Positions 1,273-62,135 are shown, numbered from the stretch's first letter. The stretch: DNA of 64,000 bases from Candidatus Thalassarchaeaceae archaeon (GCA_030747675.1 JASLKH010000035.1:6943-70942), one strand, 5' to 3'. Numbers and translations: made by a program. The notes: a model not told the origin generated them from the sequence alone.

Positions 1273-3396
1273 TTATTCTTCCTCTGTATGAGAGGATAAT
1301 ATATGGCCTTCATTTTCAGTTAATCGTTGTCCAATCCACATTACAATAAGCAATGGCGCTAAGAGAACAAAGAATTGTAAAACATTGGATGAATATGGTT
1401 CAAGCACTACCTCTATTGTGAAAATACGAATCTCAGAGTTACCATCATCATCTAATTGCCTCCAAGCGATATGGTCTTCCATAACTTGGGGATCTAATTG
1501 ATCGATGCTGTCGGGTGTATGCAAAGGATATGAGCGATTATCAGCAATGATATGGAAATCAACTTCCCAGTCTAAATAATCTGGATTCGGATCATTTGAT
1601 ATTAGGAACTGCTGCTGCTGCCATGCAATGTGGCCATGTCCAATACTTGGAGAGGCAACAGGGAATACAGGATCACCAAGAATCCGCTGATCTCCGGACA
1701 TAAGATCAACTAGAACTAGACGGTCAACAGCAGTCAAATTGACCAAAGCCACGAGATGGTTTCCCTCCAACGCAATTTTGGTGACTTGTGCATTCTCATA
1801 ATCTACAATTGTATCAGTCATAGATTGAACTTGTTGGTCACGTGGAGTATCTATTTTTGCATCTATTTCAACAGACAAGTATCTCTCTATTCCACTAATT
1901 GTTTGCACGTGGACTACATTCGGTTCATTTGTCTCAACATAAGCCACACTATGCGCATCAGTTGCAATTAATGAAACTGGAGCATTCGGTGGATAGGAAA
2001 GAGGCGTCGCATTTCCCATTCCTCGCGCACGCATCTCAATATCTCCGCCATTCAACATAACCATGTGCGGCCAAGCAGCATCACCGTTTGACAACATAGA
2101 AATGTCATCGAATAACGGGCCAGTCACCCATTGACCTTCCCATTGATTATTACTAATGTTGAAGAATTCCAATTGATATCCATGCCAAATCACAATGTGC
2201 GATTCTCCAATTAAAATTTCTACAGGATAGTTGCCCCAAGTTGTAACAAGACCAATGTTGCTTTGATAGGACTCTTCAGCAGAAAGATTCCACATAGTAA
2301 CAGAGATATTACCTTCATCTATGGACTCGTAACTAGCCAACCAACCATCTGCTCCAGTTGCTGCACTCGGTTCAGAAATTCCTTCAGCAGAGAAATGTTG
2401 GTGAGTTGTGTCCCAAAGCAATACACCTGCAGTGCTCGCAGTTAGCAACATAATGGCAACCCCAGTTTGTCGACTCCCTGGTACTTTCAGCCAAGTCCAA
2501 ACACGGCTCAAAATTACTTTGGCTTCAATAAATGGTCTCCGCCAATCTGCCAAAAACCAAGACAATCTATGGGTGAATAAGCGTTCATCTAATCCCCTCC
2601 AAATAGTTGGGGCGATATATTCTGCAACATGAACTGCAGCGGCTCCAACAAGTAAACCTCCAATAATATCGCTAACCCAATGTATTCCAAGATATAAAAT
2701 TGTAAATGCTGTGAGAATGATGTATGACACCAAAAACTGGCGCCATGTTTTCCATCTTCCATCTAAATCATTTCGGGCATAGCAATACCATATTGCAAAA
2801 GGCATCCCAATATGCAAACTAGGCATTCCATTTGTGAATGGGTCGATACGGGTGAACCAAGTCTGAATCTCAGGAGTTAAATTGTAACCTAATGTTTGCA
2901 TACCAGGGATATAATCTCCTGTAACTCTTACATTGAAAAATAAGTAAAATGGTAACGCTAACATGTAAACCATCAATATTGTTAGAGTAAGTCGATCAGC
3001 CATATGGCGATCATCAAAATAACAAGTATACACAAATGCAGAAAACATAATCATCATATATCCTGCAATATAGAAATGAGTTAAGATGAAAGTGAGAATT
3101 TTGTTTTCAAATTCCTTCTGGATTTGTAATACAATGTCGCCTTCGATAGCATAGATGTATGCGGTCATATCTAAACGAGTATTTGCCATAATTATACGAT
3201 CGATACCATCGAAGATATCTTTCCAGATATAGATTGAAAATACAATGATTGCATGCATCCAATAACGACGGAACATATCTAAAAATCCAGATACTGTAAT
3301 TCGAGACCAAGATGGTTTCAGAATATACATTAAAGCTACAGAAGTGACAATTGCTCCAGTCACCCATGTGACGTAAATTCCAGTTCCTCCCGCCAC
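1273..3396 (-). CDS. Membrane protein with a PAP2-like N-terminal TM domain, a large extracytoplasmic domain and a C-terminal TM anchor
   Basis: The 707-aa ORF uses a GTG start with GGTGAT 3 nt upstream. The N-terminal 270 aa are polytopic with PAP2-like motifs (SLHIGMPF, HWVSDIIGG). A hydrophobic helix (LLAPLLIVMWIG) follows, then a short tail ending HTEEE. Confidence 0.5.
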   Translation of the reverse strand: MAGGTGIYVTWVTGAIVTSVALMYILKPSWSRITVSGFLDMFRRYWMHAIIVFSIYIWKDIFDGIDRIIMANTRLDMTAYIYAIEGDIVLQIQKEFENKILTFILTHFYIAGYMMIMFSAFVYTCYFDDRHMADRLTLTILMVYMLALPFYLFFNVRVTGDYIPGMQTLGYNLTPEIQTWFTRIDPFTNGMPSLHIGMPFAIWYCYARNDLDGRWKTWRQFLVSYIILTAFTILYLGIHWVSDIIGGLLVGAAAVHVAEYIAPTIWRGLDERLFTHRLSWFLADWRRPFIEAKVILSRVWTWLKVPGSRQTGVAIMLLTASTAGVLLWDTTHQHFSAEGISEPSAATGADGWLASYESIDEGNISVTMWNLSAEESYQSNIGLVTTWGNYPVEILIGESHIVIWHGYQLEFFNISNNQWEGQWVTGPLFDDISMLSNGDAAWPHMVMLNGGDIEMRARGMGNATPLSYPPNAPVSLIATDAHSVAYVETNEPNVVHVQTISGIERYLSVEIDAKIDTPRDQQVQSMTDTIVDYENAQVTKIALEGNHLVALVNLTAVDRLVLVDLMSGDQRILGDPVFPVASPSIGHGHIAWQQQQFLISNDPNPDYLDWEVDFHIIADNRSYPLHTPDSIDQLDPQVMEDHIAWRQLDDDGNSEIRIFTIEVVLEPYSSNVLQFFVLLAPLLIVMWIGQRLTENEGHILSSHTEEE

Positions 3397-3449
3397 AATA
3401 TCACCGCTTTGTTAGGTTTAACCGCGTTCAGGTCAAGAGCGTTGCCACG

Positions 3450-4538
3450 TCAGAGGATAGTTGGAGCACTATCCTTAGAATTATCAAGTTCAGCCATCAA
3501 ATTCTGAACAACCCTATCAAATGCCAAAGCAACATCACTTTCTGGGTCAGCTACAATCCTATGAACTCCATCATCCCCACCTCGAACAACACCTGGGTCG
3601 AATGGTAATGACCCAAGGAAGGGGACTCCCATCTCTAGAGCCGATGCCTCTCCACCTCCTTTTTTGAAAACTTCAAGGCTGACCGACCAATTTCCATTTT
3701 CATCTGATGTAGTTTCTATTGGAACTCCACGTGGCCCCATTACTGAAATTTCAGAATTAGGTTTCGTCATACCTCTAAGGGTGTATCCAGACATATTCTC
3801 AATGACTCCCAATACTGGAATTTTAACCGTTTTAGAGAAATTAATCGATTTGCGGCTATCTAAAAGTGCGACTTCTTGAGGAGTAGTCACAATTACCATA
3901 CCATCGATATTTGGAAGAGATTGCGCTACAGTCAATGGCTCGTCACTAGTCCCTGGGGGAAAATCAATAATGAGGGCATCCAATTTACCCCATGCAACAT
4001 CTCCGATGAATTGTTGAATTGCACCTAACTTGATTGGACCACGCCAAATTACAGGCTTATCTGGATCTTCCAACAAAAATGCCATCGATATGACTTTGAC
4101 ACCATGAGGTCCTTCAGCAGGGTGTATTTGACTATCTTCAACATGTAAATCAATTTGACCAATGCCAAGCATCTTTGGAATATTGGGTCCTGTGATGTCA
4201 ATATCCAATATCCCTACTTTCTTGCCTTGACGGGCCAAACTCAGTGCCAACCCTGTGGCAACTGTTGATTTCCCTACTCCGCCTTTTCCAGATAAAACCA
4301 TAATTTTGTGACCTATGTCTTCCGCTAATCTTGTCATGCGAAGTTTACGTCGCATTTGCGCATAGGCTTGCTCCATCTGTGCTTTTTGATCTTCTGTAAC
4401 AGGGGCTTCAACGGCATCATTTGGTGATTCTTCATCTGGCTGATGGTGCGATATTGGGCCAGACATCGTGCTCTCTCCGGAATCGCCGTGTAGTATTCCA
4501 TACTTCAAGTCGTGGCTGTGAGATTTATTCTTCTTCAT
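3450..4538 (-). CDS. mrp: Mrp/NBP35/ApbC-family Fe-S cluster carrier P-loop ATPase
   Basis: It has a deviant Walker A (SGKGGVGKST) and ParA/Mrp core motifs (DIDITGPN, DALIIDFPPGTSD, VIVTTPQEV). The ORF track start is 4613. I moved the start to the ATG at 4538 (4469 also possible) to reduce overlap with the upstream gene. The N-terminal extension is His-rich. Confidence 0.75.
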   Translation of the reverse strand: MKKNKSHSHDLKYGILHGDSGESTMSGPISHHQPDEESPNDAVEAPVTEDQKAQMEQAYAQMRRKLRMTRLAEDIGHKIMVLSGKGGVGKSTVATGLALSLARQGKKVGILDIDITGPNIPKMLGIGQIDLHVEDSQIHPAEGPHGVKVISMAFLLEDPDKPVIWRGPIKLGAIQQFIGDVAWGKLDALIIDFPPGTSDEPLTVAQSLPNIDGMVIVTTPQEVALLDSRKSINFSKTVKIPVLGVIENMSGYTLRGMTKPNSEISVMGPRGVPIETTSDENGNWSVSLEVFKKGGGEASALEMGVPFLGSLPFDPGVVRGGDDGVHRIVADPESDVALAFDRVVQNLMAELDNSKDSAPTIL

Positions 4539-4995: not shown

Positions 4996-5045
4996 TATAT
5001 ATTCAATACATAGGTTTTGAAAGTAGTTGATATTGCCGAAAACAT

Positions 5046-5429: not shown

Positions 5430-5458
5430 AAAAAGGGATGGCTAATGGCCGAGATACT

Positions 5459-5530: not shown

Positions 5531-5533
5531 CCA

Positions 5534-8500
5534 TTATTCTCCATTACTCAATTGCTCAGAATATTTCTCTGCATGTGCCCGAGCTACATCTTCTGAGTAT
5601 CCTTGAAGCACCAATTTCTGGACATATGCTTCTTTGGGATCCAAGGTTACTGATCCCATCATTTGTTCCAAGTCACCTTTTCTCATTGCTGTAAAAATAC
5701 CAATTCCTGCTAATACTGTAATCAACAAAATCACTCCCAAAATAAACCACCATTGACTAGCACCTTCAAACAATTTCTCCCCACCACCAGAATTTGTTTC
5801 AGGTGCGTTTATTGTAACTGAAAATGCTCTTTCCTCTACTGGTGTTTGGGCTAATTGAGCATCAATTCCTCTAATCTCAAATGAAACTACACCTGTTGGG
5901 ACTCCAGAACGGACCTCAACTTGTACTGAATAAATACCATCTCCTGCCACCAAATCTACTCCGGCACCATCATCACGCATTGGTTGCCATGATTCACTTT
6001 GACCGGCAGGAGCAATAACTGATAATTTGGCTTGAACTATACTAATAGAATCGCCATCAGTTACCTTCGCTGTAAGAGTGTATACATTTGCACCCTCATT
6101 AGGTGATTCCAAAGAATTGACTACACTTTGGTCGTCCCAGAAAGTGACATTAGAAATCGAAGGGCCCTCATTAAGAAGGTGAACGGGAGGCATTTCTTCG
6201 ATATTATAAGGCCCAGTTGCAGTGTTATCTCCAGATTGAATTAACGTAAGCATCGTCGTAGTACCTTGCCCCCCCAATTCATCTTCAACCCTGACAGGTA
6301 GAATCTGATCACCACTAGGGATATTCAACGGCATTTTTATTTCTCCGGTCCAACTTTCCCCATTTTTTGTTAACAATGTTAAACCACCACCCCATTGTGT
6401 TGTATCAACCCCTACACTAGCTACACCTGATGAATCAATAACTGTCATGGTCACGGTTGTATTTTCACCACGATGCAGCGTGTTTGGCGAATAGGACATT
6501 TCAGTGACCCTTGGAACGCGATTCAAAAGTTGAATCGTTTGTGTTTCTTCAACAGAAGCAAAATCATCGACTGCTAAGACATCTACAGACACAAACCCTT
6601 CAATTACCCCTGGATAAACTATTTCAGTTGTGAATATATCATCATGTATTGCATAATCACCATTCAATCCACGATCATTCAATGTGACAATCCCAAGATT
6701 AATTCCAGACATATCTACTGACACACTACGCACATTCCAATCAGGGTCATCAACCTCAACTTCAAGGTGGCCTATCATGCCATTTTCATTGACCAAACTA
6801 CCTTCTCTAAAAGCCACACTAACAATCTCTGGAGCCGAGTTTTCACCTGATGTGATTATCGACGGAGAAAGCACCCTTTCAAGTGATTGTGATTCAGATA
6901 ATGTTACTGATTCGCCTTCGCCTTCTAGTGGAACTGATACTTGCCGTGATACTTCAGCAATTAATCCAGCGAGAATGCCTTCGCTAACAACTGCTCCTGA
7001 GGCAGTGCCATTCAAATCATAATTTCCCAACCAATGAGTTACTGGAATTGAATGGCCATCCCTATTTACAGTCCCGGTATGTGTAGCAGTAACAGTTAGG
7101 TGCATAAACTCAGAATCAAGCAAAGATACCGTATCGCCTACTTTCATTTGTGATGGGGAAAAACCTGTTTCCCTGGTAATATCTACATCACCAATCGCAC
7201 TATCTGGCTCAGGGACGTCCATCTCATTCATGATTGGGCTTTCCTCAGGGTATTCGTCACCAGTAGAGGTTTCACCACCCTCATTAGAATCCCATCGCAA
7301 GCGAACCGTACGATTATCCCAATGATTTTGAGGGACTTCATATTCCCATGTATTATTGTGAACCGCCTCCATTTCAAATATATTTGAACCACCACCTGTA
7401 AGGTTGACCCAAGACTCCTGGTGGATTACATTTACCTGAAACATTTGACCTGTAGCATTCGATTGGGGACCAGATTGAACAATATCTCGAACTACCCCGA
7501 AATTTCCATCAATATCTCCTGAAAAAGTTCCATCAATATGAAGTTGATCAGCCGTCTTCATTCCATTAATTGATTCTTGGAAAATATTGTGCACCGTTCC
7601 ATTTACCACCATCGAACTATTTTCTTCTGAATCTGAAAAATCAAACGTCCCATCTGCCTTCAGCACATTTTCTGAAGAAGTAAATTGCCCATTGTCCCAG
7701 CGTTCACGCTGAATTAATTGCTGAACATCTAATTCTAAGTGTGCATCGTCGGAATGGATAACCATGTCCGCTGTAGCCTCTATTTCTGTATTGGATAATA
7801 TCCTCTGGCCATCGATATCATGAGTTTCAATCAAAAACAAGGCTAAGTCCCCATCTGCTTCCATGAACTCTCCACCTCCAGATTCCTCCAAAGATAGATT
7901 ACCGCTTGCCTCTATTCGCAATTTTTCTTCAACTACTCCTTCTACCCAATTTCTTACAATATGTGAATTCACAACTTGGCCATATACATCAATATCCATT
8001 CCATCATCCGAAGTGTGCATCTCAAGTGTTCCATTTCCATACATTTCAAACACTTGAGATTGTAATTCTACTCCGACTGTTGATTCATTCAACCAAACTG
8101 TACTCAACCAAAGAACAATACTAATCGTGCCGCCATCAATTGATTCATTAATTTCTAAAGTACCTGTACCTAATTCATTAGATTCTAGACTTTCACCGAC
8201 GCGGCTTTGCCAACCCTGGCCAATGAAGTTTAGAGTATATGACTCCGATGCTGTTGCATTAATTGCTTCATGTGTCATTTGAATTAGAGTAGTTCGAGTG
8301 ATTTCATGATCCGAAAGTGGTTCATTCCAAATTGTAACGACAATCATTCGATTGCCGATTTCCGCATCATCATATAAAACAACAATTTCTACTTCATCTT
8401 TCCAATTAATTTCTGAATTTAACATTATACGTAATTCTGTGTTGTTACCTCCAGTCCAATTGAATTGCCATAACCCAACTAATTCTCCACTAGCATTATG

Positions 8501-8740
8501 ATGGTTCACACTCACATTGAGCTTCTCCAAATTGGCAAAATCAACTGATTCACTCAAAACAATTCGATAAGCATGAGTGGTGTTCCCTGACCCATCATCG
8601 ACCCAATCAGTGAGGATTTCTGCAGTAAGTGATTCAGAGGCAGGATCTGCTAAAATTATTGGGGATAAGGATACAATTGACAAAAGTAATACTCCCGCTA
8701 TGCAACGAAGGTTCGGAGAATTGGATTGCATTGTGTACAC
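5534..8740 (-). CDS. Giant secreted surface protein (1068 aa) with an N-terminal signal peptide and a C-terminal TM anchor
   Basis: The N-terminus is a hydrophobic signal (CIAGVLLLSIVSLSPIILA). The body is long, acidic and Thr/Ser/Asn/Gly-rich, as expected for beta-rich adhesin-like domains. The C-terminal helix (WWFILGVILLITVLAGIGIF) is followed by a cytoplasmic tail. Confidence 0.6.
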   Translation of the reverse strand: MYTMQSNSPNLRCIAGVLLLSIVSLSPIILADPASESLTAEILTDWVDDGSGNTTHAYRIVLSESVDFANLEKLNVSVNHHNASGELVGLWQFNWTGGNNTELRIMLNSEINWKDEVEIVVLYDDAEIGNRMIVVTIWNEPLSDHEITRTTLIQMTHEAINATASESYTLNFIGQGWQSRVGESLESNELGTGTLEINESIDGGTISIVLWLSTVWLNESTVGVELQSQVFEMYGNGTLEMHTSDDGMDIDVYGQVVNSHIVRNWVEGVVEEKLRIEASGNLSLEESGGGEFMEADGDLALFLIETHDIDGQRILSNTEIEATADMVIHSDDAHLELDVQQLIQRERWDNGQFTSSENVLKADGTFDFSDSEENSSMVVNGTVHNIFQESINGMKTADQLHIDGTFSGDIDGNFGVVRDIVQSGPQSNATGQMFQVNVIHQESWVNLTGGGSNIFEMEAVHNNTWEYEVPQNHWDNRTVRLRWDSNEGGETSTGDEYPEESPIMNEMDVPEPDSAIGDVDITRETGFSPSQMKVGDTVSLLDSEFMHLTVTATHTGTVNRDGHSIPVTHWLGNYDLNGTASGAVVSEGILAGLIAEVSRQVSVPLEGEGESVTLSESQSLERVLSPSIITSGENSAPEIVSVAFREGSLVNENGMIGHLEVEVDDPDWNVRSVSVDMSGINLGIVTLNDRGLNGDYAIHDDIFTTEIVYPGVIEGFVSVDVLAVDDFASVEETQTIQLLNRVPRVTEMSYSPNTLHRGENTTVTMTVIDSSGVASVGVDTTQWGGGLTLLTKNGESWTGEIKMPLNIPSGDQILPVRVEDELGGQGTTTMLTLIQSGDNTATGPYNIEEMPPVHLLNEGPSISNVTFWDDQSVVNSLESPNEGANVYTLTAKVTDGDSISIVQAKLSVIAPAGQSESWQPMRDDGAGVDLVAGDGIYSVQVEVRSGVPTGVVSFEIRGIDAQLAQTPVEERAFSVTINAPETNSGGGEKLFEGASQWWFILGVILLITVLAGIGIFTAMRKGDLEQMMGSVTLDPKEAYVQKLVLQGYSEDVARAHAEKYSEQLSNGE

Positions 8741-9064: not shown

Positions 9065-9075
9065 GAGAAAAAACC

Positions 9076-10899: not shown

Positions 10900-10997
10900 T
10901 TCAATTGTAAAATTAAATTTGCAATTGATTTTTTTGCACAATATTCTTGATTCGCCAAACCATATCCTAAAATCAACAAGACCACACCTACGGTGTG

Positions 10998-12371
10998 ATG
11001 CGCACCTTCGCTGTTCTCGCCATGCTCCTTGCCGCCTCCGCGGTTCCAATAGCAAGTGCGCAACAGCCAGACATAGTCCAGGAACATTGGTATCACACCT
11101 ATACAACACTCACAATTGATGTCAATGCATGGGCGGATGATTACCCTGAAATTGTAAATCTACTCGTCGCAGGTCAAACCGAACTTGGAAGAAACCTCTG
11201 GATGTTACAGATTTCTGATTGGAGTGCTGAAACCAAACCAGATGGGGCACAGAAAGAAATTGTTTACATTGATGGTGGGCATCATGGAAATGAGCATCTT
11301 GGGACTGAATTAGCATTCTTGACCGCAGAATATTACATTGAAGGTTGGGCTGCTGGAGAACAAGATGCCCTTGATGTTTTGACGACGACTGAACTGCATA
11401 TCCTCATCATGCTCAATGCAGATGGGAATGATTTTGATACGCGCTGGAATATTAATCAAGTTGACTTAAATCGAAACTACGATCATTACTGGAATACATG
11501 CCCCACGACCCAACCTGGAAGCAGTGCATTCAGTGAATCCGAAACACTTGCAAATTCAATCTACATGAACACAGTTGTACCAGATGCAGATTTGTATGTA
11601 ACCATGCACACTGGTGTTTGGATTATGCTGTATCCATGGGGTAAATGGCCAGAGCAACCTTCGGATTGGGAGTTGTTCCATTTCATCAGAGATGATGTCC
11701 ACGATAGCGTTTCAGACATTCCAATCCAAAATGCAAATCAAGGGCTCTACCCCAATTGTGGAACCAGTAGAGATTATGGATATGGAGTAATGGGGTTCCC
11801 CACTTTTACATTTGAAACCGATGATGAACAATGGGCGCCGGGGACCGTTGAATCATTGTCAAGCAGACTCGGTGAGGAAATGGACGTGATGCGATATCTG
11901 ATCAACAACATTTGGTACTGGAGAGCAAGGTTGTCTGTAACTGCGTTTGATTTTGATGGCGACTCAATCAAATTGAGGGTCGACAATTTGGGTCGGGCGA
12001 CTACTGAAAATGCAACCATCAGATATATCGATGAAGGTGAAGTGTTGTGGACTTCCGAGTTATTTAGCGTCAATGCAACCAATAGTACGCAAGCCAATCT
12101 CGCAGCCTCGAACTTGACCTTGTCAGCCTCGGGTCATTTTGAATTGTATTACCAAAAACGCGTCATTGATTCAAGTCAGTGGGTCAACGAATCAATTCCT
12201 GAAGAACAAATCAATATCTCAGATGGCGAGGATGAGGGTTGGCTCCCCTTTGCTTCACCTGTTTGGGCGATTTTAGCCATCGGCTTAGCTGGTGTAAGAG
12301 TAAATTGGCGTTTTTGCACCGATTTTGAGCAAATCAAATGCAAAAAAATGCCTCAAAATGCGGATTCTTGA
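10998..12371 (+). CDS. Secreted M14 zinc carboxypeptidase with a C-terminal membrane anchor
   Basis: The N-terminal signal peptide ends ASA-QQ. M14 motifs are present (HGNEHLG, DLNRNY). A C-terminal hydrophobic helix is present (WAILAIGLAGV). Confidence 0.75.
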   Translation: MRTFAVLAMLLAASAVPIASAQQPDIVQEHWYHTYTTLTIDVNAWADDYPEIVNLLVAGQTELGRNLWMLQISDWSAETKPDGAQKEIVYIDGGHHGNEHLGTELAFLTAEYYIEGWAAGEQDALDVLTTTELHILIMLNADGNDFDTRWNINQVDLNRNYDHYWNTCPTTQPGSSAFSESETLANSIYMNTVVPDADLYVTMHTGVWIMLYPWGKWPEQPSDWELFHFIRDDVHDSVSDIPIQNANQGLYPNCGTSRDYGYGVMGFPTFTFETDDEQWAPGTVESLSSRLGEEMDVMRYLINNIWYWRARLSVTAFDFDGDSIKLRVDNLGRATTENATIRYIDEGEVLWTSELFSVNATNSTQANLAASNLTLSASGHFELYYQKRVIDSSQWVNESIPEEQINISDGEDEGWLPFASPVWAILAIGLAGVRVNWRFCTDFEQIKCKKMPQNADS

Positions 12372-13903: not shown

Positions 13904-15793
13904 TTACGCACTGTCGTCGTCATCAACAACTTCGAAGTCAGCATCGACGACATCTTCTGCACCATCCATTCCAGTATGATCTCCGCCTTGTTCATCTTCC
14001 ATTGATGCTGCTGCTGCCTCATACAACTTTGCAGAGATACCATGCATGGCTTCTTCCAATTCTTGGACTTTTGTTTGAATTGCCTCTTCATCAAGGTCAT
14101 CATCATCAACAGGGCCTTCATCAGTTCGAATTAAAGCCTCAAGTTCAACCAATTTAGCTTCAATCGGTTCTGTATCTGATTCTTCTAACTTATCTCCGGC
14201 TTCCTTCATCGTTCGGCGTGTTTGATAGACAATGCTGTCAGCAGTATTGCGGAGTTCAACCTTCTTTTGACGAGATTCGTCCTCAGCAGCGAATTCCTCG
14301 GCTTCAGATATTTTTTGCTGGATTTCATCTTCTGATAGGCTAGTGGCACTTTCAATACGAATCGATTGTTCCTTACCCGTGCCCATGTCCTTAGCAGATA
14401 CGCTAACGATGCCATTTGCATCAATGTCAAAGGTCACTTCTATCTTTGGAATTCCACGAGCAGCCGCTGGAATTCCTTCAAGGAAAAATTTTCCAAGCGT
14501 TACATTATCCTTGGCGAACTTTCTTTCGCCCTGAAGGACGTGTACTTCTACAGCTGGTTGATTATCAGCGGCAGTACTGAACACTTCTGAACGACGTGTT
14601 GGGATGGTTGTATTGCGTTCAATCATAGGTGTTGTGACACCACCAAGTGTTTCAATGCCAAGAGAAAGAGGTGTTACATCCAGAAGAAGAACATCTGTGA
14701 CTCCTTCGTCACCAACAATGATGCCGGCTTGTAGAGCTGCACCCATCGCTACCGCCTCATCAGGATTAATTCCCTTGAAGGGGGTCTTTCCTGCTTCTTT
14801 CTCTATTGCTTCTTGAACTGCAGGAATACGAGTACTACCTCCAACCAGGAGGATTTTATCGACATCTCCTGCTTTGATTCCCGAATCCTTCATTGCTCGA
14901 CGAGTCGGGCCCATCGTAGCCTCTACAAGATCTGCTGTGAGGTCATCAAATTGAGCGCGTGATAAATTAAGATCAAGGTGCTCTGGATTACCATCTTTCA
15001 TAGTGATGAAAGGTAAATTAATGTGACTTGTTTGAGTACCCGATAGTTCAATCTTAGCTTTTTCAGCGGCTTCCTTCAATCGGCTCATAGCCTGACCATC
15101 TGTTGATAAATCAATTCCGCTACTTTTCTTAAACTCAGAAACACACCAATGGATTACACGCTCGTCAAAGTCGTCTCCACCAAGTTTGTTATTACCCGCA
15201 GTAGCCTTTACTTCAATTTGTGGTTGACCATCTACCTGATATATTTCAAGGACTGATACATCAAATGTACCTCCTCCAAGGTCGTAAACAAGAATTGTTT
15301 GATCATCATCCTTGTCAACGCCATAGGCCAAGGCTGCAGCTGTTGGTTCGTTGATGATACGTAATACTTCTAGTCCTGCAATACGACCAGCATCTTTTGT
15401 TGCCTTTCGCTGAGCATCTGTGAAATAAGCCGGACAAGTGATGACCGCTTGCTTTACTTCTGCCCCCAAATATGCTTCTGCATCAGCCTTTAGTTTCTGT
15501 AAAATGAATGCGCTTACTTCTTGAGGAGTGTAGTGATTATCGTCTACTTTACCTTTCCAATCTGTACCCATTTCTCTTTTAACAGAGAGGAAAGTACGTT
15601 CCGAATTAGTTACAGCTTGTCGCTTTGCTGTCACTCCAACCAATCGCTCTCCATCTTTAGCAAATGCTACTACGCTTGGAGTGGTCCTAGCACCTTCTGC
15701 ATTAGGGATGACTATTGCTTCGCCCCCCTCAATTGTTGCTACACAACTATTTGTCGTCCCTAAATCAATACCTATTACTGCATTTTTAACCAT
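13904..15793 (-). CDS. dnaK: Molecular chaperone DnaK (Hsp70)
   Basis: The 629-aa ORF shows Hsp70 signatures ([34 protein letters not shown]) and an acidic C-terminal tail. GGGAGGA lies upstream, within the end of the preceding gene. Confidence 0.9.
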
Positions 15794-25734: not shown

Positions 25735-25768
25735 CAAATGTTTGAAGAATGATTACATCGTCATAGTG

Positions 25769-26011
25769 ATGATTCAGATGGCAATTGGATATGTTTTGAT
25801 CAATGTCAGCCCCGGAAAAGAGCTTGAAGTATACCAGATTGCAAGTAACATTGATGCAGTGAAAGATGCTACTCTTTTATTTGGTGATTACGACATCATT
25901 CTCAAATTGGAATCTGAAAGCTTAGGGGATATTGCAGGAGTGGTTGTAGAAAAGATTCGACAAATAGAAGGAGTAACTGAAACAAAAACTCTTGCTGGTG
26001 CTGATATTTGA
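25769..26011 (+). CDS. Stand-alone RAM domain (Lrp/AsnC C-terminal ligand-binding domain) protein
   Basis: The sequence (YVLINVSPGKELEVYQIASNIDAVKDATLLFGDYDIILKLESESLGD) has an AsnC C-terminal-like fold and no HTH. I trimmed the start from the track's 25646, which overlaps the giant gene, to the ATG at 25769. Confidence 0.5.
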   Translation: MIQMAIGYVLINVSPGKELEVYQIASNIDAVKDATLLFGDYDIILKLESESLGDIAGVVVEKIRQIEGVTETKTLAGADI

Positions 26012-27343: not shown

Positions 27344-28114
27344 TTACTTCCGTAGCCCGAGTTTCTTTGCAATTATGGCAACTGGGTCGTAATATTCAGT
27401 GACTACGCGTTCCTTGAGGGGAATTATTGCATTGTCAGTGATGTTGATTCCAGCTGGACAAACTTCAGTACAGCAACGTGTAATATTGCAATATCCCAAA
27501 CCATAGTCATCCTTAATCATACTAATTCTGTCATCTTCATCCATTGGATGCATCTCAAGATTCGCAAGTCGGACGAAGAATCTAGGGCCTGCAAATTCAT
27601 CGAATAATTGGTGCTCTCGCATTACGTGGCATGTGTTGACACAAAGCATGCATTCGATACATGCTCTGAATTCCTGCACTCGATCCGCTTCATTTTGATT
27701 GAATGCCCAATCCATTTCTTCTGGCCCCTTCAATGGAGGGATTGTTTTGTTGAGGTCGTACGCCCATCCAATATCAGTCACCAAATCCTTCGTTAGAGGG
27801 AATGCCTGCATTGGTTTGACAACAACAGGTTGACCTTCAGGAGTTTCCTCCATGATATCTTCCATCCTTGTCATACACATTAGACGGGGTTTTCCGTTGA
27901 CTTCAGCACCACAAGAACCACACTTTCCAGCCTTACAATTCCATCTACAAGACATATCAGGAGCATGTTCAGCTTGGATGCTATGAATGACATCTAGTAC
28001 GACCATCCCTTCATCCATGTCAACAGTGTAGTCTACCATCTGCCCCGTTGGAACACCATCTTCGTTTGGCTCACCTCGGAAGACTCGGAAAGTAACATCT
28101 TCAGTCATTTTCAC
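27344..28114 (-). CDS. sdhB: Succinate dehydrogenase/fumarate reductase iron-sulfur subunit
   Basis: All three cluster motifs are present: 2Fe-2S (CRWNCKAGKCGSCG), 4Fe-4S (CIECMLCVNTC) and 3Fe-4S (CTEVCP). Confidence 0.85.
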   Translation of the reverse strand: MKMTEDVTFRVFRGEPNEDGVPTGQMVDYTVDMDEGMVVLDVIHSIQAEHAPDMSCRWNCKAGKCGSCGAEVNGKPRLMCMTRMEDIMEETPEGQPVVVKPMQAFPLTKDLVTDIGWAYDLNKTIPPLKGPEEMDWAFNQNEADRVQEFRACIECMLCVNTCHVMREHQLFDEFAGPRFFVRLANLEMHPMDEDDRISMIKDDYGLGYCNITRCCTEVCPAGINITDNAIIPLKERVVTEYYDPVAIIAKKLGLRK

Positions 28115-29943
28115 TCCTCCTCATGCAAGTCTGCCGCATCAAGCAATTTCTTTAGTCGTTCAGGAATTGGTGGATACGAGACGTGTGATAGATTCATCTC
28201 ACCGTTATCATCCATCACAATCACACTGTTGATATTACCCCACTTTCCATGGTCTGGAACTGGGAAATCAAGTCGTGTGTGCCCCCCCCTACTTTCTTCA
28301 CGAGACAGTGCTGCCATAGCACACATCTTGCTGATGTCAATCATTGCTCCAATTTCTAATGCCTGATGCCAGCCAGGGTTGTAAATTCTAGTGCCGCCTG
28401 GAGATGTACTGATTTCTCGATCTCTAAAACTCTCCAACTCTACAAGTGCTTCCTGAAGTTGCCCACCATCGCGAATAATTCCCACCTTCAATTGCATCAA
28501 TTCGCGCAGATCTTGGACTACCTTTGCTGGGTTTTCTCCACCTTTTCTTTTCAGTGGGGCAAGAGTTTGTTCAATTGCCTCATTAATTTCCTTAGAATCT
28601 ATGTCTAGATACTCTTTGATTTCAACAGCAGCAGCAGCAGCATATTCACCAGCTCGCTTTCCAAATGTTATGAGATCTGACAATGAATTTCCACCAAGTC
28701 GATTTGCACCATGCAAACCTGTGGCAGCTTCACCTGCGGCATAAAGACCCGGGATTGTAGACTCCTGTGTTTCAGGATTTACTTTGACTCCCCCCATCAC
28801 ATAATGTGCAGTCGGACCCACTTCCATTGGTTCCTTGGTAATATCCACTGCTGCAAGTTCCATGAATTGATGATACATTCCTGGTAATTTCTTCTTAACC
28901 TGTTCTTCAGGTCTCCAAGAAATGTTGAGATATGCACCTCCATGAATGGATGCTCGTCCTGCTTCTCTTTCAGAATTAATCGCTTTTGCCACCACGTCGC
29001 GAGTTAACAATTCAGGGGGGCGGCGGGCTGTTGGAGTTTCATCCGCAACAATAGACTGTACCCAATCCATCGCTTCTGCTTCTGTATCTGCAAACTCCTC
29101 GCGATACATTTCAGGGACATAATCAAACATGAAACGCTTGCCTTCAGAATTAGTCAGCATTCCACCTTCTCCCCGTACACCCTCAGTAACCAGAATTCCT
29201 TTCACCGATGGTGGCCATATCATTCCAGTTGGATGAAATTGAACAAATTCCATATCGCCCATCTCTGCTCCAGCCCAATATGCTAGAGCATGCCCTTCTC
29301 CGGTATATTCCCACGAACCAGAGCAGACTGCCCAGCACCGAGTAATTCCACCTGTTGCAAGAATTGTTGTTTTTGCCTTGAATACATGGAGGGAGCCATC
29401 AACGCGATTATAGGCAAAACAACCTGACAAACGGCCGTTTGTTTTGAATAAGTGACGTACAGTATATTCCATAAAAACCTCCATCCCAGTATGGATTCCA
29501 CGTTCTTGTAATGTTCGAATCAACTCGAGACCAGTTGCATCTCCAATATGTGCTAATCTTGGATAAGTATGCCCTCCAAAATTTCGTTGATTGGTTAGTC
29601 CACTGGGTGTTCGATCAAATATAGCACCCCATTGCTCAAGTTCTCTAATCCGATCTGGTGATTCCTTGGCATGGTATTCAGCCATCCTCCAGTCTCCAAG
29701 ATATTTCCCTCCCTTCATCGTATCTCGGAAATGAGTTTCCCATGAATCTCGCGGATCTTTGTTCCCTAAGGCTGCCGCAGCCCCTCCTTCTGCCATTACT
29801 GTGTGTGCCTTCCCCAGCATGGATTTACAAATCACTGCCACAGATGCGCCTTTTTTTGTAGCTTCAATCGCAGCACGTAGACCTGCTCCTCCAGCACCTA
29901 TGACAACAACATCGTACTCATGGGTTGTATACTTCTCACTCAT
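28111..29943 (-). CDS. sdhA: Succinate dehydrogenase/fumarate reductase flavoprotein subunit
   Basis: The ORF starts with an FAD-binding Rossmann motif (VVVIGAGGAGLRAA) and is 610 aa. It overlaps sdhB by 4 nt. Its C-terminus is the unusual DLHEEE. Confidence 0.9.
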   Translation of the reverse strand: MSEKYTTHEYDVVVIGAGGAGLRAAIEATKKGASVAVICKSMLGKAHTVMAEGGAAAALGNKDPRDSWETHFRDTMKGGKYLGDWRMAEYHAKESPDRIRELEQWGAIFDRTPSGLTNQRNFGGHTYPRLAHIGDATGLELIRTLQERGIHTGMEVFMEYTVRHLFKTNGRLSGCFAYNRVDGSLHVFKAKTTILATGGITRCWAVCSGSWEYTGEGHALAYWAGAEMGDMEFVQFHPTGMIWPPSVKGILVTEGVRGEGGMLTNSEGKRFMFDYVPEMYREEFADTEAEAMDWVQSIVADETPTARRPPELLTRDVVAKAINSEREAGRASIHGGAYLNISWRPEEQVKKKLPGMYHQFMELAAVDITKEPMEVGPTAHYVMGGVKVNPETQESTIPGLYAAGEAATGLHGANRLGGNSLSDLITFGKRAGEYAAAAAVEIKEYLDIDSKEINEAIEQTLAPLKRKGGENPAKVVQDLRELMQLKVGIIRDGGQLQEALVELESFRDREISTSPGGTRIYNPGWHQALEIGAMIDISKMCAMAALSREESRGGHTRLDFPVPDHGKWGNINSVIVMDDNGEMNLSHVSYPPIPERLKKLLDAADLHEEE

Positions 29944-57010: not shown

Positions 57011-57053
57011 ATGAAGCACTGCATATTGTGATATTTCTACAAGAGTTCTTGAT

Positions 57054-57815
57054 TCAATAACTCATTCTCTCGAGTTGTCGACCAATTGCTTCTTCCATTG
57101 ATATTCTACCCACAGCAACTGAACGAGCAAGTCTCTGTGAAACCGTAACTCGCCCCCCTGATTGGATCCTACTCAATCGTTGAATCTCTTTTACTTCCCC
57201 ATGTGTGGGTTTAACTGGTTGTTTAGAAACTATTGGTTGACCTTCGATGCTTGCAATTCTTACTGCGGAAGCGTGATGCTGGTTGCGATGGAGTCCTTCT
57301 GACGTCCGCCTTTCATCCACACGCTCAACAGGAATGCCTCGTGCGAGACAAATATTGGCTAGTCGATTTGAAATTGTAGGTGAACCATCGCCTATGCGAA
57401 CCGTCATATCCACGTGTTCAATATCAGATGTTAAAAAGCAAATTTGATCGATAGTTGAATCTACTGACTCAAACTGATTCGTACCTAATACTCGACCATC
57501 TCCCATCCAAGCCAGTCCGGGGCGAGGGCCAGGGTCAATGCCAAATGTTAGTTGACGAACTTTACCACCTTGTGATACTAATCTCAATGCACGATCTATC
57601 GCAGATTCAACAGATTCAAGGGTAGCGCCAATTCCAAGTGGATCTGCTGCTGCTTCTACTTCAGCGTGAGATGCAATCCAAACTCTAGTCGATGGTGGTA
57701 AAGGAGTGTCTCTTTCGAGATGTGCACAACGTACTTTCCTACGCTTCAAACCTGCTAACAATCGGTATGCCAGACGGAAGTCTGCCGTGCGAACGACTAC
57801 TTCACCCACACGCAC
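57054..57815 (-). CDS. Hypothetical protein, possibly a DUF99/UPF0215-like or RNase-H-like-fold nuclease
   Basis: The 253-aa GC-rich ORF has a GTG start with GAGGT upstream. The motifs FGIDPGPRPG, VDSTIDQI and GIPVERV weakly resemble UPF0215/DUF99 proteins. This assignment rests on memory, not a search. Confidence 0.3.
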   Translation of the reverse strand: MRVGEVVVRTADFRLAYRLLAGLKRRKVRCAHLERDTPLPPSTRVWIASHAEVEAAADPLGIGATLESVESAIDRALRLVSQGGKVRQLTFGIDPGPRPGLAWMGDGRVLGTNQFESVDSTIDQICFLTSDIEHVDMTVRIGDGSPTISNRLANICLARGIPVERVDERRTSEGLHRNQHHASAVRIASIEGQPIVSKQPVKPTHGEVKEIQRLSRIQSGGRVTVSQRLARSVAVGRISMEEAIGRQLERMSY

Positions 57816-58579: not shown

Positions 58580-58583
58580 TTAG

Positions 58584-58756: not shown

Positions 58757-58830
58757 TATTAGTCGGATTGGGGCCTAATTCTTCAGCACTCCCCCCGACC
58801 CTTCAAGAATAACCCCCTTGAGCCAAGGGT

Positions 58831-60333
58831 GTGAGTGACGCGAGGAGAGAGAGAGATCGACGGGCACTAATCCTGCTTTTCATTAGTGGATTTCTCGCTA
58901 TACAAATTCATTGGGCATTTGCAGTGTTAGGTTTATGGATAGTAATTCTTGGACAACTTGAAAATCGAGGATTTTTAGATCGTTGGAATGCAACCCGTGT
59001 ATTGGGTGGGATTCTGATGATTCGTACAAAACGGGGTCAAAGAGCTTTAGAAAAAATTGCGCAACCTCGTAAAGCATGGAGGGTTTTTGGCGAGATATCT
59101 CTGTGGACTTGCTATGGTGCAATGTTCCTGATTATTGGATTACTATTACTTTCAATTATTTCTGCAATTATGTATGGAGTTCCCAAAAGTGAGGCGCCCC
59201 CCAGTCAAATGATCCTAATTCCAGGAGTAAATCCAATAATTCCATTCTGGTGGCCGGCTCTTGCAATAATTGGAGCATTAGTCATTCATGAATATGGACA
59301 CGCTCTGCAAGCACGCGCACATGGAATGCGAGTACGCTCATTCGGATTGCTGATGTTGGGGCCTCTCCCCTTAGGTGCCTTCGCCGAACCGGAAGCTGAA
59401 GAATTATTCAAAGCACCAAGGAGGGAACGTGTGAGAATGTTTGCTGCTGGACCTGCTATCAACCTCTATGCTGCTTTGTTTACTTGGCTTCTAATCGGGG
59501 CATTGGCAACTCAATTTGCCGCAGCAGATCCGGGGGTACATGCATCAGGTATCATTGAAGATGCACCCGCCGATTTAGCGGAAATTCAGCCATGGGAAAT
59601 TATCACTCATTTTGATGGAATTGAAGTTTCAACCGCTCAAGGATTAAGCAATGAAATTGGAAAATTCAAAGCCGGTGATGAGGTTACTGTTCGTGTTCTA
59701 AGTCATGAAAATCAGGGAATCCGTACAGAACGGATTGTCAATGTTACTTTAGCCGATCGTCATGAATATTATCTTACTCAAGAAAATTTATCTGCGGCTG
59801 AACGTGATTGGGTTGAAGGAAATGTCAATCCAGGTGATGCATTCCTTGGCGTCTCTGGGATGGCTGGAGGAACTGTTGGGATGGACCGCATAGCGGGGCC
59901 ATTATCTGAAAATCAGGACAGTTCTCTGATATTCAAAGGACTTGGTGCTGCTTTACAACCAATTATAATCATCAGTACTCCGATTGAACATGGTGGTCAA
60001 ATTATGGATCCAAATGAAATGGAATATCTGGAAGCAGATGGTTGGCTAGGCGATTTACTAGGCAAACAAATCATGATGTTATTGATTACGGGATTGTTCT
60101 GGTTTGTATGGATGAACCTTGGACTTGGATTTGCAAATTTAATCCCAATCATCCCATTTGACGGTGGTCATCTAATGAAAGATATGTTACATTGGATCGC
60201 TGAAACCGTAAATCGTTTTACTAAAAACCCGCATCCAATGAAAGTTGAGCCGTTTGTGAATAGAATATCTTCTCTCAGTAGTTTGATTTTGTTCTTTGTA
60301 CTCTTATTACTAATGTTTGCACAATATCTCTAA
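58831..60333 (+). CDS. Site-2 protease (M50 family, RseP-like) with an embedded PDZ domain
   Basis: HEXXH (HEYGHAL) is in a TM helix. A PDZ-like segment is present (GIIEDAPADLAEIQPWEIITHFDGIEV...GDEVTVRV). The second zinc ligand motif NLIPIIPFDGG is present. The start is GTG. Confidence 0.8.
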   Translation: MSDARRERDRRALILLFISGFLAIQIHWAFAVLGLWIVILGQLENRGFLDRWNATRVLGGILMIRTKRGQRALEKIAQPRKAWRVFGEISLWTCYGAMFLIIGLLLLSIISAIMYGVPKSEAPPSQMILIPGVNPIIPFWWPALAIIGALVIHEYGHALQARAHGMRVRSFGLLMLGPLPLGAFAEPEAEELFKAPRRERVRMFAAGPAINLYAALFTWLLIGALATQFAAADPGVHASGIIEDAPADLAEIQPWEIITHFDGIEVSTAQGLSNEIGKFKAGDEVTVRVLSHENQGIRTERIVNVTLADRHEYYLTQENLSAAERDWVEGNVNPGDAFLGVSGMAGGTVGMDRIAGPLSENQDSSLIFKGLGAALQPIIIISTPIEHGGQIMDPNEMEYLEADGWLGDLLGKQIMMLLITGLFWFVWMNLGLGFANLIPIIPFDGGHLMKDMLHWIAETVNRFTKNPHPMKVEPFVNRISSLSSLILFFVLLLLMFAQYL

Positions 60334-61269
60334 TCATTCCTCTTCTTCAAATTGAAGTGTTTTCTCTTCTATTTCCGCTTGAATTACTTCTGGAGTTAAT
60401 TCCAGTGACTTATTCGCAATTCGTTCCCAAACTGCAGGGATGGCTAACAGCACGATTGCTGAAAATATCAATTTAGTCCATGATGCACTGGGAACTTGTT
60501 CACTATTATCGGATAATGCAAGTTTTACAGAACCTACCCAGGGAATTTCCGCTCCTGCAACACCAATAATCCAATCGTCTCGAACCGGTAATACACGTTG
60601 TCCATTCTCATCCAACAAACCACCTGAATGAGCACCTTTTTGATCATAACTACATCCATTTGTGATAGAATTATCACCTGTTGTCAAATATCCTGCATGA
60701 ACAGGATTCCAATCTTCGATTGTTAGATTCCCATAGTGAAAACAAGGGTAATCAATTTCTACAGTAATTGTTTCAACATTACTCACATTAGTCCCTGGAA
60801 TTGACCAAGTAAGAACACATGTTCCTTCTTCACCATCTAAATCAACTGTGATTGGATCCCAAGAGCCATTTTCACATTCACCAATATCTCGATTCACCGG
60901 TGTTTCTGTAGTGTGTGCATCTACACGTAATATTGCACGATGAATGACAGGAGTATCACTTCCTCCATTTTTTGAAAATATAATGACATCACCTGGCATT
61001 CCGTGGCTCTCATATCCATTCCCTGATTCAATCGATTCAACATATGTAATAATTTGTTTCTTTTCAGGAGACATTACCAAAACTAAATCTCCAGGGTCGA
61101 TAGCACCAATATTCCCCTCATTTTCATGCATCATTGAACCTGATTCAATAACAACCATTGGTGGCCAAGAACCAGTCATAAGTACTAATGCAGCGACAAG
61201 GGCTGTGATTAAACCCCCAGCAAGAAGGGCTTCGCGTGTCCAACTCCACGCTTCGCCCATGGCGGTCAC
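60334..61269 (-). CDS. Signal peptidase I (archaeal/eukaryotic S26B type) with a C-terminal extension and TM anchor
   Basis: An N-terminal TM helix is followed by a catalytic Ser context (VIESGSMMHE), then GDLVLV, GDVIIF and HRAIL. The C-terminus ends FEEEE. Confidence 0.6.
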   Translation of the reverse strand: MTAMGEAWSWTREALLAGGLITALVAALVLMTGSWPPMVVIESGSMMHENEGNIGAIDPGDLVLVMSPEKKQIITYVESIESGNGYESHGMPGDVIIFSKNGGSDTPVIHRAILRVDAHTTETPVNRDIGECENGSWDPITVDLDGEEGTCVLTWSIPGTNVSNVETITVEIDYPCFHYGNLTIEDWNPVHAGYLTTGDNSITNGCSYDQKGAHSGGLLDENGQRVLPVRDDWIIGVAGAEIPWVGSVKLALSDNSEQVPSASWTKLIFSAIVLLAIPAVWERIANKSLELTPEVIQAEIEEKTLQFEEEE

Positions 61270-62135
61270 TCCTCTTCTTCTATTGATTCAGGTCGGTCGC
61301 CTGAAGCAGGGAATGTTGACCAAAACACTAGAATTGAAAGCAATAAGAACACCCACCCAGAAAGGTCATCAAAATATGGAGCCGCATAAGAATCAATACG
61401 CTCACCATTCAACCATTCCCAAACATGAATTGTATTAACGCGCTCATCAAGTTCATTTCGAGCAAGACCAAAGATCATATTGTAAAGTTGTAAAGTCATT
61501 GCAATCAAACCAATACTTCCGATTGTTCTATTCACCAATGGAATACGAAATCCATCAAATGGAACCCATCGCGATAATCTAGAATCATCAGTACGCCACC
61601 AATCAATTAGCAAATCTTCTGCCACTTTGGTCTCCGCTTCACTAGGTGCGATTCTTGCTCGAAGAATTCCTTGTTCGATAAAATGGGCTTTCAAACGTGC
61701 CGACCACACGCTTCCAAGAAGGGTTGCTGCTTCTTCTGCATCTTTGCGCTGACGAGTCAAATCTGGTCGTGATGTTGTGTTCAATGTCTGTGTTAGGATT
61801 GACCATTGTCCATGATAATGAATGAATTCAGGAGCTGCAAAAATCATCAGTGTAACACCGATTAGTAGTCCCACCCATGTCCAACTAACCACATCTACTA
61901 ACTCAGGATCTGCCGCCCCGTCCATGAAAAAGAAGAATATTACAGACCACATCACTAAGCAAAAGCCCAGAGTTGAAAGTGTACCTAAAATAACCAAATG
62001 GCGATCGCGTTGTTTTTCCCACCAAGAAGTGAATGGCTTAAACATTGAATTTTTAATTTGACCAATCGTTCGTCCCAATGACATCGCAATCCCGGCTCGC
62101 CGAGGTGCTCTTGGATGTTGAGTGTTCGCCTTCAT
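61266..62135 (-). CDS. Hypothetical integral membrane protein
   Basis: I trimmed the start from 62333 to the ATG at 62135 (AGGGGGA 3 nt upstream), which removes overlap with the divergent gene at 62222. The protein is polytopic and its C-terminus is PESIEEEE. It overlaps the signal peptidase start by 4 nt. Confidence 0.4.
   Translation of the reverse strand: MKANTQHPRAPRRAGIAMSLGRTIGQIKNSMFKPFTSWWEKQRDRHLVILGTLSTLGFCLVMWSVIFFFFMDGAADPELVDVVSWTWVGLLIGVTLMIFAAPEFIHYHGQWSILTQTLNTTSRPDLTRQRKDAEEAATLLGSVWSARLKAHFIEQGILRARIAPSEAETKVAEDLLIDWWRTDDSRLSRWVPFDGFRIPLVNRTIGSIGLIAMTLQLYNMIFGLARNELDERVNTIHVWEWLNGERIDSYAAPYFDDLSGWVFLLLSILVFWSTFPASGDRPESIEEEE

Follow-up and report, generated by a model that had tools for sequence, protein, structure and literature searches.

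A conserved tri-glutamate motif at the exact C-terminus of a subset of protein families in Poseidoniales archaea

Six proteins encoded in a 64,000-nucleotide stretch of a Candidatus Thalassarchaeaceae archaeon genome (GCA_030747675.1, JASLKH010000035.1:6943-70942; hereafter the window) end in three or four glutamates, and all six tails, which had been reported in an initial annotation of the sequence, translate to EEE or EEEE immediately before the stop codon at the coordinates given in Table 1. Comparison with related loci demonstrated that this tail is conserved across orthologues, exactly terminal, specific for Glu, restricted to one lineage and mostly independent of the genes downstream. 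The chances appear to us evenly balanced that xEEE-COOH is a protein-level motif which is held under purifying selection in Poseidoniales and read by a dedicated cytoplasmic factor.

The frequency of the tail was assessed on the 51 non-overlapping open reading frames (ORFs) of at least 60 aa found in the window, which represent approximately 48 plausible genes. Apart from the six carriers, none of the window proteins (approximately 45 remaining ORFs) ends in EEE. Glu makes up 6.9% of the residues of these ORFs, and EEE occurs as an internal tripeptide at a frequency of 4.7e-4 in the related loci; approximately 0.02 EEE tails would be expected among some 50 proteins, compared to the six observed (Poisson P(>=6) ~ 3e-13). 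The tails are thus far above chance, as had been claimed initially, and the probability is still low when the two cases coupled to a Shine-Dalgarno site are set aside (P(>=4) ~ 1e-8). At the DNA level, the two strands of the window together contain only 17 GARGARGAR sites, of which 8 (at the six loci) abut an in-frame stop codon. The six gene ends displayed no similarity to each other beyond the 9-12 bases of the Glu codons, and a shared DNA element or repeat was rejected as the cause for this reason.

Conservation was evaluated in 80 genome loci surrounding sdhA (1.35 Mb) and 33 metagenome loci surrounding the PAP2 gene, with the ORFs clustered into families. The tail was found to be kept in all six families, which was a prediction following from the initial annotation. 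EEE ends were present in 20 of 21 orthologues of the PAP2 fusion (metagenome loci L081-L104), in 63 of 81 SdhA orthologues, in 11 of 22 orthologues of the surface protein (these being its closest clade) and in 11 of 20 orthologues of the protein with four transmembrane helices (4-TM protein), the remainder of which end in KEI, KED or KGN. For the small membrane protein, all three locus orthologues and all seven database homologues (68-100% identity) carry the tail, and for the S26 signal peptidase it was present in 18 of 22 locus orthologues as well as in 101 of 120 database homologues, down to 46% identity. The gene calls behind the database entries were made independently and agree with the locus ORFs. 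Three further families outside the window behaved similarly, namely an FKBP-type isomerase (11/11 locus members and 119/120 database homologues), a geranylgeranyl-reductase-like flavoprotein (5/6) and an ABC-2 type ATPase (5/5). Most other families have no EEE ends at all (e.g. 0/79, 0/73 and 0/59). In total, EEE was the majority tail in 9 of the 73 families with at least three members, an outcome for which 0.03 families would be expected (P ~ 2e-19), while any other tripeptide was the majority tail in at most one family. The possibility that EEE ends occur at the frequency expected from composition was thereby tried on this regional sample, and with EEE in the majority in approximately 10% of families it did not hold. 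The tails are a property of particular families, roughly one in ten in the sampled regions, and the excess is real. Chance or amino-acid composition is left with practically no probability: the mildly acidic proteome of the window (D+E 13%, K+R 9%) is all that speaks for it, and it was rejected on the basis of the Poisson figures at both the window and the family level together with the retention of the tails in orthologues.

A profile of 104 distinct S26 peptidase tails revealed how sharply the motif is delimited. At positions -1, -2 and -3 the entropy was 0.16, 0.58 and 0.58 bits, respectively, compared to 3.1-3.6 bits at positions -4 to -12, and Glu accounted for 98%, 90% and 91% of the residues at the last three positions, where Asp reached 1-4%, and for 3-29% at -4 to -12. 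Among the 21 non-Glu residues at -1 to -3, Lys and Gly together were found four times and Arg not at all, and the exceptional tails are one-nucleotide neighbours of EEE (EQE, DDE, SEE and similar). Since Lys and Gly, which can have all-purine codons, are scarce and Asp is rare, the constraint appears to act on Glu itself and not on acidity or on a purine tract. The PAP2 family and the surface-protein clade displayed the same entropy step: the residues preceding EEE in PAP2 tails are hypervariable (RQSDEEE, AEIGEEE, RHSKEEE, IRGNEEE, PIFNEEE, GKDQEEE and others), and the tails in the surface-protein clade differ in length by approximately 17 aa, yet all terminate in EEE. In homologues of the small membrane protein, the tripeptide is preceded by HPRS, RPQI, FPVV or RTRP. 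The motif is thus x-E-E-E-COOH, sometimes with four Glu, at the exact terminus, and the near-exclusion of Asp together with the fixed length of three points to stereospecific recognition rather than to charge alone. A His residue before the Glu run, which had been noted for three of the proteins, is not a general feature, as position -4 is hypervariable and of ordinary composition. The tails also do not resemble the compositional, low-complexity acidic tails of halophile type, since Asp and Glu are not interchangeable and the acidity is confined to fixed positions; they have the properties of a generic C-terminal short linear motif, i.e. a fixed terminal position, conservation in orthologues with varied flanks, and recurrence in unrelated families.

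Poseidoniales use Shine-Dalgarno sites (GGAGG, TGAGGTGA), and the EEE codons (GAGGAGGAR) could in principle be merely the Shine-Dalgarno site of a following gene, translated in the frame of the gene before it. Tails were considered coupled when a same-strand gene follows within 40 nt. This situation is found at the sdhA-sdhB junction (GAGGAGGAG-TGA-AA-ATG), at the junction between the 4-TM protein and the S26 peptidase (GAGGAG-TGA-CCGCC-ATG, with GAGGAG at 61269-61274, 8 nt 5' of ATG 61260) and, in the related loci, where the ABC ATPase gene precedes that of a permease; GGAGG lies 5-8 nt before the next ATG. The start of sdhB is most likely ATG 28108, which follows the sdhA stop by 2 nt and has GGAGG 7 nt in front of it, and the listed GTG 28114 is less likely. 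GGAG or GAGG was present at 78 of 79 sdhA-sdhB junctions, and SdhA orthologues without EEE all retain the Shine-Dalgarno site in other frames (KEGKA from AAGGAGGGT, HEEDE and HEGE), just as the KEI and KED ends of the 4-TM orthologues derive from AAGGAG-type sites. Conservation of EEE was moreover lowest within the coupled families, at 78% for SdhA and 55% for the 4-TM protein. The six cases, initially taken as independent, are consequently so for four proteins; in SdhA and the 4-TM protein the tail codons are the Shine-Dalgarno site of the next gene, as in known cases where the upstream gene carries such a site within its 3' end (here GAGGAGG, 5-8 nt before the next start). Judging from these junctions, the two tails are probably, at least in part, by-products of translational coupling, and the Shine-Dalgarno role may be the main reason for their presence. 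A GGAGG site requires only GAG-GAG-G, so that the third Glu is not needed and both constraints may act together in these two proteins.

The Shine-Dalgarno explanation applies to these two of the six window tails and not to the other four. The stop codon of the PAP2 gene abuts that of the convergent nadA, and the stop codon of the S26 peptidase gene abuts the convergent M50/PDZ peptidase gene, in both cases with 0 nt between them; the surface-protein gene is followed by AT-rich intergenic DNA with no coupled gene; and at the small membrane protein, whose tail is all GAA, neither GGAG nor GAGG was found in the last 18 nt, the stop codon and the next 8 nt. The convergent neighbours, the intergenic DNA and the all-GAA tail mean that these four are not Shine-Dalgarno sites. 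At the family level, the tails of six of the nine are GAA-rich and are followed by a convergent gene or by intergenic DNA, with no same-strand gene downstream. Codon usage followed the same division, with 77% GAG in coupled tails and 73% GAA in uncoupled ones (genome average 58% GAA and 42% GAG); GAA does not pair with the anti-Shine-Dalgarno sequence, and GAA and GAG vary freely among orthologues of the uncoupled tails. Other coupled gene pairs place the Shine-Dalgarno site in other frames, which leads to tails such as WGGI, LEDES, KGGN and KEI. As the sole cause, a Shine-Dalgarno by-product was therefore rejected for these four window tails and these six families, which leaves it very improbable as a general explanation, and it is kept as a partial cause for sdhA and the 4-TM gene (61266-62135).

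A different RNA-level explanation is that three GAR codons before the stop, or tRNA-Glu in the ribosomal sites, tune termination, recycling or the fate of the mRNA 3' end, the protein tail being incidental. The conserved unit is indeed GAR-GAR-GAR-stop and always located at the stop, such a signal would give a preference for Glu over Asp without any protein reader, and many carriers lie in 0-nt convergent pairs whose 3' ends necessarily overlap (among the five uncoupled EEE families, four have a convergent gene next to them, at a median gap of 0-7 nt). Against this stand the equal usage of stop codons and of the +4 base in EEE genes and other genes, the lack of the tail in highly expressed window genes (the thermosome ends in KTEDD and DnaK in DDDDSA), the finding that non-EEE genes lie in tight convergent pairs just as often and that the partner genes have no EEE, and the near-absence of A-to-G transitions to Lys or Gly codons, which would keep the purine tract. 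We consider an RNA-level signal quite improbable. A role as antisense oligo-pyrimidine terminator was rejected on the same grounds, i.e. tight pairs being as common without EEE and partners having no EEE, and is also contradicted by the spacer of approximately 280 nt after the surface-protein gene; the antisense TTCTTCTTC would moreover make a poor archaeal oligo-T terminator, for which KKK would provide the better T-tract. Convergent genes were commonly observed with 0 nt between their stops (1272/1273 and 60333/60334) or with overlaps of up to 57 nt (L114:10913-10969), leaving no room for intergenic terminators.

Where the tail is located could be predicted for several carriers. In the surface protein, a signal peptide and a large ectodomain are followed by one C-terminal transmembrane (TM) helix at approximately residues 1620-1638 and then by an acidic tail of approximately 75 aa. 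In the S26 peptidase, the catalytic domain is flanked by N- and C-terminal TM helices, and type I signal peptidases have their catalytic domain on the outer face of the membrane. From crude hydropathy and knowledge of these families, the EEE ends of both proteins should face the cytoplasm, and the family assignments of SdhA, the ABC ATPase, the FKBP and the geranylgeranyl-reductase-like protein point to a cytoplasmic location. Although the six window proteins had been noted at first as membrane-embedded or membrane-peripheral, the tag is not confined to membrane proteins, since the soluble FKBP isomerase (119/120), the ABC ATPase and the geranylgeranyl-reductase-like flavoprotein also carry EEE. 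An enrichment for TM proteins was marginal (6 of 9 EEE families compared to 18 of 64 others, Fisher p ~ 0.05), and one of the six is likely a false TM call. The cytoplasmic tails of the M14 and M50 peptidases do not end in EEE.

The range of the motif was assessed with the S26 family. The SdhA of the window is 76-90% identical to SdhA from metagenome-assembled and single-cell genomes named Thalassarchaeaceae, Poseidoniales and MG-II MED-G33, and the window belongs to Marine Group II (MGII), subgroup MGIIb. The comparison covered 150 relatives of the S26 peptidase, each representing a 50%-identity cluster, and EEE was found in seven of the eight closest (E < 1e-40) and in only one of approximately 140 more distant archaeal ones; this absence from outgroups rests on the one family that was checked. 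The distant peptidases have K/R-rich ends, as predicted for cytoplasmic tails by the positive-inside rule, or end in ..DDEDL. One EEE cluster holds a protein named Poseidoniaceae (MGIIa), and one DDEDL cluster bears the name Thermoplasmata archaeon. Approximately 12 of the 150 representatives end in [DE]3-4-x-L-COOH (DDEDL, DENDL, SDDEL and DEDDSL; P0185, P0189, P0195, P0197, P0198, P0208-P0210, P0244, P0250, P0251 and P0265), and this conserved acidic end may represent another C-terminal motif, again lineage-specific, on the same tail. In an MGIIa (Poseidoniaceae) locus, 2 of 11 genes end in EEE, one encoding an S26 peptidase and the other a 207-aa protein whose MGIIb counterpart in the window lacks the tail. 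From these sequences, the motif appears to be order-wide in Poseidoniales, with carrier families partly turned over between MGIIa and MGIIb. A contig labelled Planctomycetaceae bacterium (L078, PBOU01000193.1) contains an MGII-type sdhA (77% identity) that ends in DLQEEE and is coupled to the sdhB start; it is probably mis-binned.

The published description of magroviruses of MG-II is matched by contigs with a thermosome, an AEP primase and a RecB/Cas4-like nuclease (PMC5434244), and IMG/VR contigs in which a thermosome gene lies beside those for an AEP primase and a RecB/Cas4-like nuclease were regarded as magrovirus-like. On these contigs, 11 of 282 ORFs end in EEE, belonging to four families (the primase, the nuclease and two small proteins; examples in Table 1), and none of the 85 ORFs on the contigs with a GC content of 0.58 (L130-L133 and L137) does. 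The viral tails are poorly conserved among viral orthologues, most of them directly precede the next gene and are Shine-Dalgarno-coupled, and they are suggestive only.

On the reading that we favour, i.e. that of a selected motif with a dedicated reader, xEEE-COOH would have been gained by a defined subset of families across Poseidoniales (MGIIa and MGIIb) and subsequently held by purifying selection, being placed on cytoplasm-facing ends, either on tails after the last TM helix or at the ends of peripheral and soluble proteins. The three Glu and the free alpha-carboxylate would be read by a lineage-specific cytoplasmic factor, candidates for which would be a binding domain of the carboxylate-clamp type, or else an enzyme or a protease adaptor acting on C-terminal Glu, and recognition might then lead to docking, to quality control and turnover, or to modification. 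Where a same-strand gene lies downstream, the Glu codons are GAG-biased and double as its Shine-Dalgarno site. The notion of a shared recognition or sorting tag thus fits the entropy drop, the preference for Glu over Asp and the conservation, and fails in its details on His and on membrane proteins. That EEE-COOH is the address label of a Poseidoniales-specific receptor or enzyme system, present on approximately 10% of the proteome (membrane, peripheral and soluble proteins), possibly including magrovirus proteins, and serving localisation, turnover or modification, is a more far-reaching proposal, which we put forward tentatively and regard as somewhat doubtful.

Several observations weigh against a dedicated reader. 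The carriers (a signal peptidase, a lipid phosphatase-like protein, an adhesin-like protein, SdhA, FKBP, an ABC ATPase and a geranylgeranyl-reductase-like protein) share no obvious function, which fits a generic protection as well as a specific pathway. Three of the nine EEE families overlap a Shine-Dalgarno site, and a constraint on the mRNA or tRNA-Glu at GAR-GAR-GAR-stop predicts the same codons, though the rarity of Lys and Gly codons speaks against it. AlphaFold2 models the tail of the S26 peptidase as a confident helix and not as a free, disordered end; such a helix model is uninformative on function. The sample consists of syntenic regions (approximately 1.7 Mb and 120 loci), not of whole proteomes. 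Finally, no reader was found among the candidates examined in the window. Pfam annotation gave no TPR domain match among the window proteins, no ATP-grasp gene and no RimK/TTL-like ligase or deglutamylase was seen in the window annotation, and two large unannotated window proteins considered as possible readers (approximately 1070 aa each and without a Pfam match) had no sequence match in the PDB. The PDZ domain of the neighbouring M50 protease was also considered and is disfavoured: characterised site-2 proteases such as RseP have their PDZ domain outside the cytoplasm, and the tails would be cytoplasmic.

Given the heterogeneity of the carriers, a generic protective cap without any reader stays the main rival. 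Four terminal negative charges would shield exposed cytoplasmic ends against carboxypeptidases or prevent Lon, Cdc48 or the proteasome from recognising them as C-degrons, or would keep the tails soluble and off the anionic membrane. Besides the varied carriers, the mostly variable linker before EEE and the overall acidic proteome are consistent with this, MGII cells are peptidase-rich (M14 and M17 peptidases are encoded in the window), and three codons are easily gained, in keeping with a tail that has arisen independently several times and with carrier families that differ between MGIIa and MGIIb. Charge alone, however, leaves unexplained why Asp is nearly excluded (1-4%, compared to 90-98% Glu) and why exactly three Glu are found at the exact terminus with ordinary composition at -4, and other lineages with acidic proteomes are not known for EEE tails. 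The M14 carboxypeptidase of the window is a relative of carboxypeptidase T with a signal peptide and a C-terminal TM anchor, and thus extracellular and membrane-tethered, which fits the protein-degrading lifestyle of MGII. A link between this enzyme and the tails was rejected, as a secreted, TM-anchored peptidase poses no cytoplasmic threat. We judge a generic cap to be unlikely.

A special case of a specific reader would be a C-terminal modification cycle, in which the encoded Glu tails serve as primer or substrate and are extended by a RimK/TTL-like ATP-grasp ligase or trimmed by a deglutamylase, as with ribosomal protein S6 or tubulin. This would explain both the strict Glu requirement and the free terminus, and a published report describes RimK as acting on a protein that ends in Glu-Glu (PMC10375531). 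Such a cycle is nevertheless improbable, considering that no such enzyme was seen among the window genes, that the encoded run is tightly three, sometimes four, and not variable, and that RimK has a single known substrate.

Literature searches aimed at the motif turned up no description of it, in agreement with the initial remark that it was not recognised as a described archaeal motif. The closest analogues in working are EEVD/TPR, PTS1/Pex5, HbYX and C-terminal degrons. The EEVD-COOH end of Hsp70 and Hsp90, bound by the TPR carboxylate clamp, is similarly an acidic terminal motif that follows a variable, flexible linker and is read along with its free carboxylate, but it is eukaryotic and limited to two chaperone families, whereas EEE is found on approximately 10% of unrelated families in an archaeal order; the DnaK of the window ends in ...VVDDDDSA, and EEE sits on other proteins. 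The peroxisomal targeting signal 1 (PTS1, SKL-COOH) and KDEL are likewise motifs of three residues (four for KDEL) at the exact terminus of many unrelated proteins with little upstream constraint, though they direct proteins to eukaryotic organelles via Pex5 and the KDEL receptor, respectively, and the EEE carriers include integral membrane proteins. The archaeosortase/exosortase signals (PGF-CTERM, PEF-CTERM and PEP-CTERM) are also lineage-restricted, present on many proteins and found by comparative genomics. Such signals, made up of a signature motif, a TM helix and a basic cluster, are removed from secreted proteins on the outer face, while EEE-COOH is acidic, occupies the cytoplasmic side beyond any TM helix and is also present on soluble cytoplasmic proteins. 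No PGF/PEF-like signature was present in the tails, no CTERM-type domain was found in the EEE carriers with NCBIfam, and EEE occurs on FKBP, SdhA and the ABC ATPase as well.

Short free C-terminal motifs that recruit proteolysis, such as ssrA ...LAA (ClpXP) and the -EE C-degron read by DCAF12 in eukaryotes, offer a further comparison. The ssrA tag is hydrophobic and added by tmRNA, which archaea lack, and DCAF12/CRL4 is eukaryotic, in contrast to EEE, which is genome-encoded on housekeeping proteins. The RimK/ribosomal protein S6 system is prokaryotic and involves an encoded C-terminal Glu run recognised by an enzyme, yet it is bacterial, has a single substrate and adds Glu post-translationally, whereas the EEE tails are fully encoded and present on many proteins.

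Annotation with Pfam revealed an ordinary chromosomal gene set in the window, which also has two tRNAs. Besides the six carriers, the window encodes nadA, an Mrp/NUBPL ATPase, a low-molecular-weight phosphatase, an arginase-family protein, an AdoMet decarboxylase, M14 and M17 peptidases, DnaK, a thermosome, a macro-domain protein, sdhC and sdhB (in the sdhCBA set with the EEE-tailed SdhA), Cdc48, ATCase, Hjc and the M50/PDZ protease. At the surface-protein gene, the same frame continues beyond the stop codon with Q-M-F-E-E-stop, and with L-R-T-F-E-E in a related locus (L010, downstream of 13481); relatives with tails 17 aa longer end in ...IFEEE. The in-frame Q-M-F-E-E may be what is left of an earlier C-terminus; in that case the protein would have been truncated and its EEE end subsequently restored. 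Alternatively, the overlapping 121-aa ORF may be a real gene for a small membrane protein. A conserved AT-rich intergenic motif, ATTAATTATTGATTATTG, lies right after the surface-protein stop in L001, L004, L006, L009, L011 and L021, and was not found at that place in the window.

Table 1. Positions of the EEE-tailed proteins, their terminal codons and associated features (window coordinates unless a locus is named)
Feature	Position	Strand	Remarks
PAP2-superfamily fusion membrane protein, 707 aa	1273..3396	-	ends ...SSHTEEE; PF14378/PF01569
PAP2 fusion, EEE codons and stop	1273-1284	-	GAGGAAGAATAA
Small membrane protein, 3-4 TM helices	4525..4995	-	ends ...HPHHEEE; start probably 4953, giving 142 aa (other gene callers; P0426)
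Small membrane protein, EEE codons and stop	4525-4536	-	GAAGAAGAATAA, all GAA
Surface protein, 1713 aa	20593..25734	+	ends ...DSYREEE; signal peptide, PA14, LamG
Surface protein, EEE codons and stop	25723-25734	+	GAGGAAGAATAG
SdhA flavoprotein	28111..29943	-	ends ...DLHEEE; GAGGAGGAGTGA
SdhA, tail codons	28111-28122	-	GAGGAGGAG-TGA
sdhB Shine-Dalgarno site and ATG	28106..28122	-	GGAGG within sdhA EEE codons; ATG 28108-28106
S26 (Sec11-type) signal peptidase, 308 aa	60334..61260	-	ends ...LQFEEEE; start ATG 61260 (P0001), 61269 in the first gene model
S26 peptidase, EEEE codons and stop	60334-60348	-	
Uncharacterised 4-TM protein, 289 aa	61266..62135	-	ends ...ESIEEEE
4-TM protein, EEEE codons and stop	61266-61280	-	
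nadA	184-1272		convergent with PAP2 fusion gene
Large protein	5534-8740		no Pfam match
M14 carboxypeptidase	10995-12371		
DnaK	13904-15793		
121-aa ORF	25646-26011		overlaps surface-protein gene
Q-M-F-E-E-stop	25735-25749		in frame after surface-protein stop
Large protein	45537-48773		no Pfam match
MGIIb counterpart of 207-aa protein	57054-57815		without EEE
M50/PDZ peptidase	58831-60333		convergent with S26 peptidase gene
MGIIa carriers (two genes)	L141:13989-14612, L141:10001-10957		S26 peptidase ending ...AAEELEEE; 207-aa protein ending ...NRSSEEE
Magrovirus-like EEE examples	L122:2065-3186, L126:5102-6361, L126:3902-4987, L122:7803-8189, L135:4067-4351		

Poseidoniales are among the most abundant archaea of the surface ocean, have never been cultivated, and their cell biology is almost uncharted, and a near-invariant, order-wide C-terminal tripeptide provides a strong handle on it. 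The division between GAG and GAA codons shows a protein motif and a Shine-Dalgarno site sharing nine bases. Annotation pipelines could flag EEE-COOH, and it was through comparable signals that sortases, archaeosortases and peroxisomal import were discovered. If the address-label proposal is true, the system would be a prokaryotic counterpart of PTS1- and EEVD-type signalling with no described homologue.

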